Source of the DNA: Alkalispirochaeta sp.
Lineage (GTDB): Bacteria; Spirochaetota; Spirochaetia; DSM-27196; Alkalispirochaetaceae
Assembly (NCBI GenBank): GCA_965601925.1
Contig: OZ271854.1
Location: forward strand, 4,800,001-4,864,000
DNA: 64,000 bases
Reading direction: 5' to 3'
The notes under the pieces were generated by a model. The model had not been told where the DNA came from. It was given only the letters and a program-made list of their open reading frames with translations, and ran no database searches. Position numbers and translations under genes: made by a program. Below are positions 7,437-9,482 of the stretch, in pieces. The first letter of the stretch is position 1. Each line of letters opens with the position of its first letter.

Positions 7437-8120
7437 TTAATCCGCCGCCGCCTCGACCCGCCACGGACCCGATTCCATCCATAACCAGGGGCTCCACTCG
7501 ACGATCAGAAAGATGTCGGTCCCGTCGGATAGCTCGGCCGCCTGCTGAGCCGTATCTGAAACGAGGGACGACCACGGAACGATTCGCTCCTCCGTATCGA
7601 GCGGCCACTCGAGCTCGGTGCTGATCGGTGACGCGTCCGATGCACTCCGGGTCACGTAGAGGCGTCGTGCGTCGGCGGGTACGACGAGGTTGCCGTCGGC
7701 GATACGTGCAAAGGCATCGGGCTCGGCCTCGGGGACGGTCGTCGGAATGGTGACCGTTTGCGACGCCTCGCGACCCGAGAGGTCGATCACGGTGACGACA
7801 AGCGTGTCACGCGGCATACGAGAACGCCCGCGCAGACGGAGACGATCGGATCCGTACCAGTGCTGTCCGTCTCGGGGATGATAGCGCCACGTACTCCCGT
7901 CGAGGTTCCACGACAGATCAAAGTCCTCGTAGGCGATGGTAAGGGTATCGAGCTCTCCCTCCCCGTCGGGATCGTAGACGTCGACGAAGACCGAAAGGCG
8001 CTCCTCGACCTCCTCTTGGTGGGGCACACCGCCGGCGATCAGGCGTGCATCGATCTGCAGTATCTGCGGGTCCGACGAGCTGCACGCCGCAAAGGCGAAC
8101 ACCGAGAGAAACACCCCCAA
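7437..8120 (-). CDS. Hypothetical lipoprotein
   Basis: Hydrophobic stretch ending in lipobox-like FAAC. Start uncertain: the ORF extends to 8225 through the rpsU terminator, so TTG 8120 is preferred. Confidence 0.6.
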   Translation of the reverse strand: MGVFLSVFAFAACSSSDPQILQIDARLIAGGVPHQEEVEERLSVFVDVYDPDGEGELDTLTIAYEDFDLSWNLDGSTWRYHPRDGQHWYGSDRLRLRGRSRMPRDTLVVTVIDLSGREASQTVTIPTTVPEAEPDAFARIADGNLVVPADARRLYVTRSASDASPISTELEWPLDTEERIVPWSSLVSDTAQQAAELSDGTDIFLIVEWSPWLWMESGPWRVEAAAD

Positions 8121-8169
8121 CGCCCGCGCATCGACCGGGTGCCTCTCAGCGTGAAAACGCTGAGAGCAG

Positions 8170-8195
8170 AAAAAAAAACGCCCGTTTCCGGGCGT
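8170..8195 (-). terminator. Rho-independent terminator of rpsU
   Basis: ACGCCCG-GAAA-CGGGCGT hairpin followed by a T run on the minus strand, about 30 nt after the rpsU stop. Confidence 0.85.
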
Positions 8196-8224
8196 CTGTC
8201 GACCGGCGGTATTACGCCGCCGCA

Positions 8225-8434
8225 TTAATAACTCTTGGAAGACTGCATCTTGCGAATCTTCTTCTGGATCTTTCGTTCCATGGCCTTCTTTTTACGATTC
8301 TTGATCGTAGAGGGCTTCTCGTAATACTCGCGCTTCTTCCATTCTCGAATGATTCCTTCCTTCTCGACCATTCGCTTGAAGCGTTTTATAGCCTTCTCGA
8401 GGTTTTCTCCCTCGTCGATTCTCACGATAGCGAT
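8225..8434 (-). CDS. rpsU: 30S ribosomal protein bS21, probable ATC start
   Basis: [33 protein letters not shown] signature. SD AAAGGGGGTGATC precedes the in-frame ATC at 8434, giving 69 aa. Confidence 0.95.
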
Positions 8435-8453
8435 GCGATCACCCCCTTTCGTT

Positions 8454-9482
8454 CTAAGGTGATGGTGATAATGACCCACCGAGGGCACCGGTGTCAACAA
8501 GCGGCACTTCTACGGTCGCCTCCGGGTCGACGGGGACGCCGGAGACGCGAAGCTCCCAATGGAGATGCGGACCCGTGGACAGGCCGGTGGAACCGACCGT
8601 TCCGATCGCGTCACCGACGGCGACGAGATCGCCCGGTACGACCGAAAGCTCGTCGAGGTGGTAATAGAGCGTGTAGACTCCCGGGAGGTGCTCGAGCACC
8701 ACGGTTTTTCCGGTGATCAGTCGATCCGTCGCCATCGCCACCCGCCCGGCAGCGGGAGCCAGAATCGGCGTGCCGATCGGGGCGGCGAAGTCGACGCCGT
8801 AGTGAATCGCATCGGCGCTATTGCCGTCGGCGTAGAGAAATACCCGTCGGTCGCCGAACAGAGAGGTACGACGAATCTCGGCGAGAGGAAGGACGAAACG
8901 TCCGATGTGGTGGCGTGCGGCGGCGTCGAACGTCTGCAGGAGCTCCCACAAAACCCGCGACTCTTCGGCTCGTCGCGGATCGTCGGTGGTACGCAGATCG
9001 CTCAGCGCGCCGGTGAGGGCGATATTCTCGCGACGAAACTCGCGCGCCGCGACGGTAAACACCCCGTCTCCCGCGGCCGTCGTCCCGTCGTCGCGATGCG
9101 CCGTAACGGTGAGCGTCGCCTCGCCGGCGCCGACGGTCGTAGGCACGCCGAACATAATCACCCAACGTTCCGGCTCATCGACCTCGGGCGCGCCCATCGA
9201 CCATCCGTGAGCCCGCACCGATACTCCGTCGGCAAAGGTGACCGATCCCTCGGCCGAGACGATAGTCTCTCCGGTGACGCCGACGACGAGCACGCCCCCC
9301 GGCACCGCATCGGGAGCGTGGTCGAGGAGAATCGTCGACGTCTGGGCGACGATCACACCGGGAGCCGAAATACCGGCGATCACGATGAGGACGATGTGCA
9401 GGATGCGACTACGAATCGACGACGATTTGCTCGTCCGACCGCCGCATGTCAACGACGACAAGTTGTATCGTTTCATTTCCAT
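8454..9482 (-). CDS. M23 family metallopeptidase (exported)
   Basis: HYGVDFAA (HxxxD), YYHL and TGPHLHWE (HxH) zinc motifs; N-terminal signal segment. Start uncertain because it overlaps recJ. Confidence 0.9.
8468..8497 (-). promoter_or_regulatory. Putative rpsU promoter TTGACA-18-CATTAT
   Basis: Consensus -35 at 8492-8497 and -10 at 8468-8473, inside the 3' end of the M23 gene. Confidence 0.5.

Follow-up and report, generated by a model that had tools for sequence, protein, structure and literature searches.

An AUC start codon behind a near-maximal Shine–Dalgarno sequence in rpsU of an Alkalispirochaeta genome, kept as AUC or AUA across the sampled genomes of its order

The window analysed here is a 64,000-nucleotide stretch of an Alkalispirochaeta sp. 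genome (contig OZ271854.1), whose minus strand carries rpsU, the gene for ribosomal protein bS21 (8225..8434; 69 amino acids plus a TAA stop), as assigned by profile and structure-sequence matches. Upstream lies a peptidase M23 gene on the same strand (8454..9482; PF01551, E 2.6e-31), whose TAG stop codon (8456-8454) stands 3 nt ahead of the rpsU Shine–Dalgarno (SD) run. A promoter for rpsU is predicted on the minus strand from a −35 hexamer TTGACA (8492..8497), located inside the 3′ end of the M23 gene, and a −10 hexamer CATTAT (8468..8473) across an 18-nt spacer. This promoter-like site has 10 of 12 matches and is the sole one in 8100-8600, where shuffled sequences average 0.1. On the other side of rpsU, an intrinsic terminator is predicted at 8167..8197 of the minus strand, with a 9-bp stem (8197-8176) and then a T-run tail, TTTTTTCTGC. 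The open reading frame downstream (7437-8225, minus strand) has no Pfam match. It contains a signal-peptide-like stretch that ends in FAACSS and resembles a lipoprotein signal, and its true start probably lies far downstream of the listed ATG at 8225.

The promoter signals recur in the relatives. The order was sampled with 41 genomes from the genus, the family and the order, the window's own included, and 39 of these have a bS21 match; the other two have a completeness of 80% and 90%. In 36 of the 39, an exact TTGACA accompanied by a −10-like hexamer is found at most 110 nt upstream of rpsU, and 35 of those 36 pairs score 9 of 12 or higher. The end of the −10 box is 28-37 nt from the ATC or ATA codon in 28 of the 39 loci; the leader predicted from this distance is about 21-30 nt long. 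We infer that rpsU has its own predicted promoter, a short predicted leader and a predicted terminator. Re-initiation coupled to the M23 gene was considered as a requirement and discarded: the ATC/ATA codon persists behind differing upstream sequence, and a promoter lies upstream in most of the genomes.

The identity of the product is clear from several matches. The 69-aa protein fits the Pfam family Ribosomal_S21 (PF01165) over residues 4-56 (E 3e-20; 72 bits against a cut-off of 27), and a profile search returned it as the single bS21 match in the 5.05-Mb genome. With phmmer it matches 36 solved bS21 sequences. It is in register with the solved 69-aa chain 8fmw_U (3-65 to 3-65), from a structure that we take to be the Borrelia burgdorferi ribosome, and it aligns with the 71-aa bS21 chain 10fz_U over 3-62 to 3-62. 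An earlier note on this DNA had claimed that the protein begins at the usual bS21 start, and both alignments bear this out.

Read along the minus strand, AAAGGGGGTGATC (8449-8437) is followed by GC, ATC (8434-8432), GCT, a second ATC (8428-8426), GTG (8425-8423) and AGA. The frame opened by the first ATC continues for 69 codons to TAA at 8227-8225. This putative initiation codon (8432..8434, AUC in the mRNA) lies 2 nt past the SD run and 7 nt past its GGGGG core, while the GTG at 8423..8425, which we read as codon 4 (Val) and not as the start, is 16 nt from the core; both spacings had been given in the earlier note and are confirmed. The same note had stated that no in-frame ATG is suitably placed, and indeed none occurs before codon 22. 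Upstream, the in-frame candidates are a GTG 15 codons back and a TTG at 8500, both located no further downstream than the predicted −10 box.

The extended SD itself, GAAAGGGGGTGATC (8437..8450, minus strand), forms 14 contiguous pairs with the 16S 3′ tail, one of them G:U. Both 16S copies of the genome end in ...GGATCACCTCCTTTCTA, so the 13-mer pairs with the genome's own rRNA, with one G:U, just as had been proposed from the usual 16S 3′ end, and G8450 contributes a 14th pair. The duplex energy is −25.7 kcal/mol (ViennaRNA duplexfold), the strongest among 103 loci compared below, for all of which the window's 16S tail was used as an approximation. In the Flavobacterium work, the rpsU SD is delimited by 9-13 bp and an energy below −13 kcal/mol under the free_scan model; the run described here has 14 bp and −25.7 kcal/mol under the ViennaRNA model. 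SD runs of 12-16 pairs are present in 36 of the 39 order loci.

Runs of this length are rare in the genome. Fourteen contiguous pairs, G:U allowed, are reached at only 15 positions on both strands (about 10.1 million positions), four of them in rRNA operons, which makes the rpsU match unlikely to be a product of chance. Among the first starts of 5713 long ORFs (at least 200 aa), assigned crudely and without annotation, not one reaches 12 pairs within 22 nt upstream, and the remaining genomic runs of 12-14 pairs are mostly without a start codon at suitable spacing. A separate observation concerns a 17-nt stretch, TGGGGAGGAGGTGATTT, which pairs (G:U allowed) with the entire 16S 3′ tail. It occurs twice outside the window (G000:C1:2551047-2551063 and 3303451-3303467), about 1.85 kb upstream of each 16S 3′ end and hence in the leader of each rRNA operon, and it probably serves as an arm of the 16S processing stem.

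A leader hairpin that would join UCACCUU (8462-8456) to GGGGUGA of the SD (8439-8445) on the minus strand was tried as a candidate and rejected (z −0.99; 30 of 200 shuffles fold as well). Its 5′ arm overlaps the M23 stop codon and may precede the transcription start. The UCACCUU at 8456-8462 matches a segment of the 16S tail, and ACCTTA recurs at that position in most genomes of the genus.

The start codon was compared across the order by reading the rpsU 5′ ends of all 39 matching genomes, which carry 11 family labels. At the position aligned with ATC 8434, all 39 have ATC (34) or ATA (5), and none has ATT; the alignment proposed in the earlier note, meant to look for a conserved ATC/ATT behind an extended SD, shows ATC or ATA in every locus. 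Codon 4 is GTG in only eight of the 39 genomes and otherwise GTA, GTT, GTC, ATC, ATT or ATA, a variation in keeping with a Val/Ile position. From the upstream stop to codon 16 or later, nine loci (L003-L008, L020, L026 and L105) contain no in-frame ATG, GTG or TTG. The upstream in-frame stop is the TGA within GGTGAT in L003-L008 and L020, and also in L103/L104. In many other order loci, a canonical codon occurs nearby only as a GTG or ATG within the SD itself. With an AUH codon (AUC, AUA or AUU) in every one of the 39 genomes, and with nine loci lacking in-frame canonical codons, the conserved AUH of rpsU has no usable canonical start as an alternative.

At the third base of the codon, C and A replace each other in at least three groups of family or genus rank (L016/17, L018/19, L106), and G or T never occurs there in the order. 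This alternation argues for selection against AUG, on a parsimony argument drawn from family labels and made with no tree. As a side observation, in the six same-genus relatives L003-L008 the SD core is followed at once by an ATG in another frame (GGGGGTGATGTTAC ATC), located 8 to 6 nt before the rpsU codon. This ATG would open a frame of about eight codons overlapping the rpsU start.

Beyond the order, a search of 301 genomes of the phylum at least 90% complete gave 297 with a bS21 match, 294 of those outside the order. Sixty-seven outside loci were read, comprising the 27 best-scoring and 40 chosen from the listed matches to spread over family labels. The 39 loci from other orders of the class have ATG in 22 cases, TTG in eight, GTG in three and ATC in six (L043, L056 and L059-L062, with three family labels). 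The 28 loci from other classes have ATG in 12, TTG in 10 and GTG in three; in the three left over (L095, L097, L098), the ungapped extrapolation is off by 1-3 codons and a canonical codon is adjacent by eye. Altogether, of the 67 outside loci, 58 have ATG, TTG or GTG exactly at the aligned position, three more have a canonical codon adjacent to it, and six have ATC. The ATC of the window therefore occupies the position of a canonical start.

Agreement between assembled sequences speaks to the accuracy of this codon. Two assembly contigs, at depths of 34.5 and 26.6, match the window without a single difference over 8100-8600 and are possibly its own source. Two contigs from coral metatranscriptomes of other studies cover 8275-8448 and 8285-8445 with five and four differences, placed at 8321, 8336 and 8354, the remaining ones having no listed position; such contigs attest the sequence in RNA libraries and do not speak to expression levels, starts or RNA ends. 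Contigs from four runs thus carry the ATC, which argues against a sequencing error, the outcome that the earlier note had named as fatal if reads or close relatives showed ATG; the order relatives have ATC or ATA without exception. Taken with the comparisons above, it is strongly supported that rpsU starts at ATC 8434-8432 and not at GTG 8425, as had first been proposed, and equally that the near-maximal SD and the AUH codon, conserved across the order, are selected and not an error.

SD length and start codon strength were then set against each other in 103 loci (39 from the order, 39 from other orders of the class and 25 from other classes, the three misaligned loci being dropped). SD runs of at least 12 pairs precede ATC/ATA in 41 loci, GTG/TTG in 17 and ATG in five, and runs of at most 11 pairs precede ATC/ATA in four, GTG/TTG in seven and ATG in 29. 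The median duplex energy follows the same order, at −21.8 kcal/mol for ATC/ATA, −20.8 for GTG/TTG and −17.1 for ATG. Spacing was counted from the A of GGUGA and leaves out sixteen loci with short or off-register runs. It is 4-6 nt with a median of 5 for ATC/ATA (all 42 scorable loci), 4-8 nt with a median of 6 for GTG/TTG (22 loci) and 5-9 nt with a median of 7 for ATG (23 loci). Long SDs accompany weak start codons across the phylum, an association in raw counts uncorrected for shared ancestry.

The reading of the codon depends on the tRNAs available. The set found with aragorn is ordinary, with three tRNAs of anticodon CAT and one tRNA-Ile(GAT), and a special initiator tRNA was discarded as a candidate because nothing in this set is unusual. 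Reading of the AUC must then fall to the initiator tRNA, which mismatches it at the third position. One of the 51 tRNA genes is tRNA-like with a four-base anticodon, tRNA-???(gggg), and may be a false positive. Further genes with AUH starts were sought by scanning the genome for (A/G)GG(A/G)GGTGA followed 2-8 nt on by ATC, ATA or ATT and an ORF of at least 50 codons. The scan gave 30 candidates including rpsU; the others mostly have an in-frame GTG in the motif or look chance-like within coding sequence, and none is convincing.

Few proteins of a cell are made in such amounts as the ribosomal proteins. In E. coli, AUC gives 1-2% of the initiation of AUG, with the N-terminal Met retained (10.1101/063800), and an order-wide AUC/AUA start on a ribosomal protein gene is for this reason unexpected. 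Two other bodies of work offer a frame. In Flavobacterium johnsoniae, ribosomes without bS21 translate rpsU better (PMC9976891, PMC13000457), and a 13-bp SD–anti-SD helix is incompatible with bound bS21 (PMC13000457). In Staphylococcus aureus, extended SDs direct conserved AUU and AUA starts at roughly 10% of the AUG level (PMC13009471). To these may be added that immature E. coli 30S subunits bind IF3 poorly, evade its proofreading and initiate at non-canonical codons (PMC6868393).

On these analogies, the weak codon and the over-long SD might together be a selected device that limits bS21 synthesis, with small subunits lacking bS21 translating rpsU best; we give this reading about an even chance. 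The AUC start at 8434-8432 would be held in place by the 14-bp pairing between leader and 16S 3′ tail, and the long helix would compensate for the C:C mismatch of AUC with the ordinary initiator tRNA(CAU). If this SD helix is incompatible with bound bS21, as in F. johnsoniae, then bS21-free or immature 30S subunits, which may escape IF3 proofreading as in E. coli, would preferentially initiate on rpsU, and this preference would close a negative feedback loop on bS21. The AUC codon, for its part, would disfavour mature, IF3-proofread subunits. A feedback switch read by ribosomes that lack bS21 or are weakly proofread by IF3, as the earlier note had suggested, is plausible.

A stricter form of the same device is more doubtful, namely a double lock in which the 14-bp helix would be barred on 30S subunits carrying bS21 and the AUC rejected by IF3 on mature subunits. 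Were it true, only unfinished, bS21-free subunits would initiate rpsU, and bS21 synthesis would read out incomplete ribosomes. It would also extend autoregulation by specialised ribosomes from the SD-blind Bacteroidota to a phylum that uses SDs, and it would account for a whole order never reverting AUC/AUA to AUG.

How far the flavobacterial analogy carries depends on the details. F. johnsoniae rpsU (PMC9976891, PMC13000457) is the same gene, has a 13-14-nt complement to the 16S 3′ tail directly upstream and a short leader of about 25 nt, compared with the 21-30 nt predicted here; in the window genome no other crude ORF start nears the SD length of rpsU. However, the start codon is AUG there and AUC/AUA here, and the phyla differ (Bacteroidota there, Spirochaetota here). 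Against F. johnsoniae bS21 (7jil_z), moreover, phmmer matches residues 3-48 only, and the C-terminal part with Tyr54 is unmatched in the bS21 of the window. Bacteroidia are SD-poor and have the anti-SD locked in a pocket of bS21 (Tyr54), bS18 and bS6, whereas the window genome is SD-enriched: with crudely assigned starts, SD-like runs of at least 7 pairs precede 13.0% of long ORFs against 4.5% in a control window, and runs of at least 8 pairs 5.1% against 1.3%. This enrichment before ordinary ORFs suggests that the anti-SD is probably not generally hidden, unlike in Bacteroidia. A 1981 report is said to have found that E. coli 30S subunits without S21 expose the anti-SD less well, not better, and a worse exposure of this kind would reverse the sign of the proposed effect.

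The S. aureus genes cvfC1, ccpN and infC (PMC13009471) share with rpsU of this order an AUH start behind an extended SD at tight spacing, codon and SD alike being conserved among relatives. They encode regulators and IF3 rather than a stoichiometric ribosomal protein, and they use AUU and AUA, AUC having no occurrence in the passages searched of that paper. In addition, initiation was mapped there by ribosome profiling and is deduced here from comparison. Set beside both systems, rpsU combines extended-SD control with an extended-SD-directed non-canonical start, on a ribosomal protein gene and throughout a whole order. It thereby joins flavobacterial bS21 autoregulation and the extended-SD non-canonical starts of S. 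aureus in a third phylum, and the cultured members of the order would offer a tractable system in which ribosome composition and start-codon proofreading may cooperate in feedback.

The strongest competitor to the feedback device, to which we assign a substantial though less than even probability, is a constitutive set-point: the ATC is real and senses nothing, its weakness being offset by the strong SD and the promoter, or the long SD makes the codon nearly irrelevant. PMC13009471 lends itself to this view, since extended SDs in S. aureus "aid recognition of weak start codons" in genes unrelated to the ribosome. Across the phylum, rpsU often has TTG or GTG behind a long SD, which fits a general trade-off, and SDs are used generally in the window genome, whose infC is not of the AUU type. 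A ribosomal protein also needs high output, and the AUC may merely be balanced by promoter and SD. Nevertheless, a third base that is C or A but never G in 39 genomes implies active selection against the stronger codon, which would be difficult to account for were the product of both strengths all that counts. Likewise, the long run sits on rpsU, with no crude long-ORF start at 12 pairs, as in the flavobacterial feedback, where a 13-bp helix and bS21 are known to be incompatible (PMC13000457).

Translation of rpsU might instead vary inversely with IF3 activity alone, in response to IF3 level or growth state and independently of bS21, like E. coli infC; we consider this unlikely. The infC gene of E. 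coli has an AUU start and is autoregulated by IF3. The likeness lies in the AUH start, against which IF3 would discriminate: that IF3 disfavours AUH codons is textbook knowledge and is also stated in PMC9723500 and PMC6868393. The output of the AUA start of ccpN in S. aureus, moreover, changes with the medium (PMC13009471). The differences are that bS21, the product of rpsU, is not the discriminating factor, and that infC in the order begins with TTG, 4 nt past an ordinary GGAGG, in 24 of 24 genomes. There is accordingly no evident AUU-based IF3 circuit of the E. coli kind, the lineage does not visibly use AUH logic at infC, and sensing of IF3 alone would leave unexplained why what is apparently the longest SD of the genome sits on rpsU specifically. 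The TTG of infC and the SD enrichment upstream of ordinary ORFs also weaken strict analogies for the feedback device. Two minor features of infC may be recorded: in one order genome, a TGA immediately precedes the TTG, and the infC of the window genome (L108, G000:C1:3053541-3056747) has about seven extra codons after the start (ARQDMRTTKQDLR versus AKQDLR).

It is very improbable that the ATC is not the start at all and that initiation falls on GTG 8425 or an upstream in-frame TTG or GTG, or that the C is an error for ATG: GTG 8425 is present in the window and the gene of close relatives is called by some programs as a 91-aa or 71-73-aa form, but codon 4 is GTG in only eight of the 39 genomes, nine genomes lack any canonical in-frame codon close to the N-terminus, the 71-73-aa forms would start inside the SD itself, the upstream candidates of the window are at or before the predicted −10 box, the contigs of four runs agree on ATC, and the sister orders have ATG, TTG or GTG at exactly the same codon.

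Our literature search returned no account of spirochaetal rpsU starting at AUC or AUA, and the 69-aa form is already in NCBI-sourced records: NCBI-named proteins of 69 aa begin with M-A at the ATC codon (P0071, P0082, P0101, P0105, P0109, P0022). Among the names given to 69-aa relatives in the database are Salinispira pacifica, Marispirochaeta and Spirochaeta dissipatitropha. Other gene callers place the start in relatives at a GTG within the SD, giving 71-73 aa, or far upstream, giving 88-99 aa. The divergence arises because most gene callers cannot pick ATC or ATA, and callers restricted to ATG, GTG and TTG give wrong bS21 N-termini (the 71-73-aa and 88-99-aa forms). In the public records, the bS21 family accordingly appears with at least three N-termini, of 69, 71-73 and 88-99 aa (P0002, P0004, P0012, P0044, P0064, P0075).
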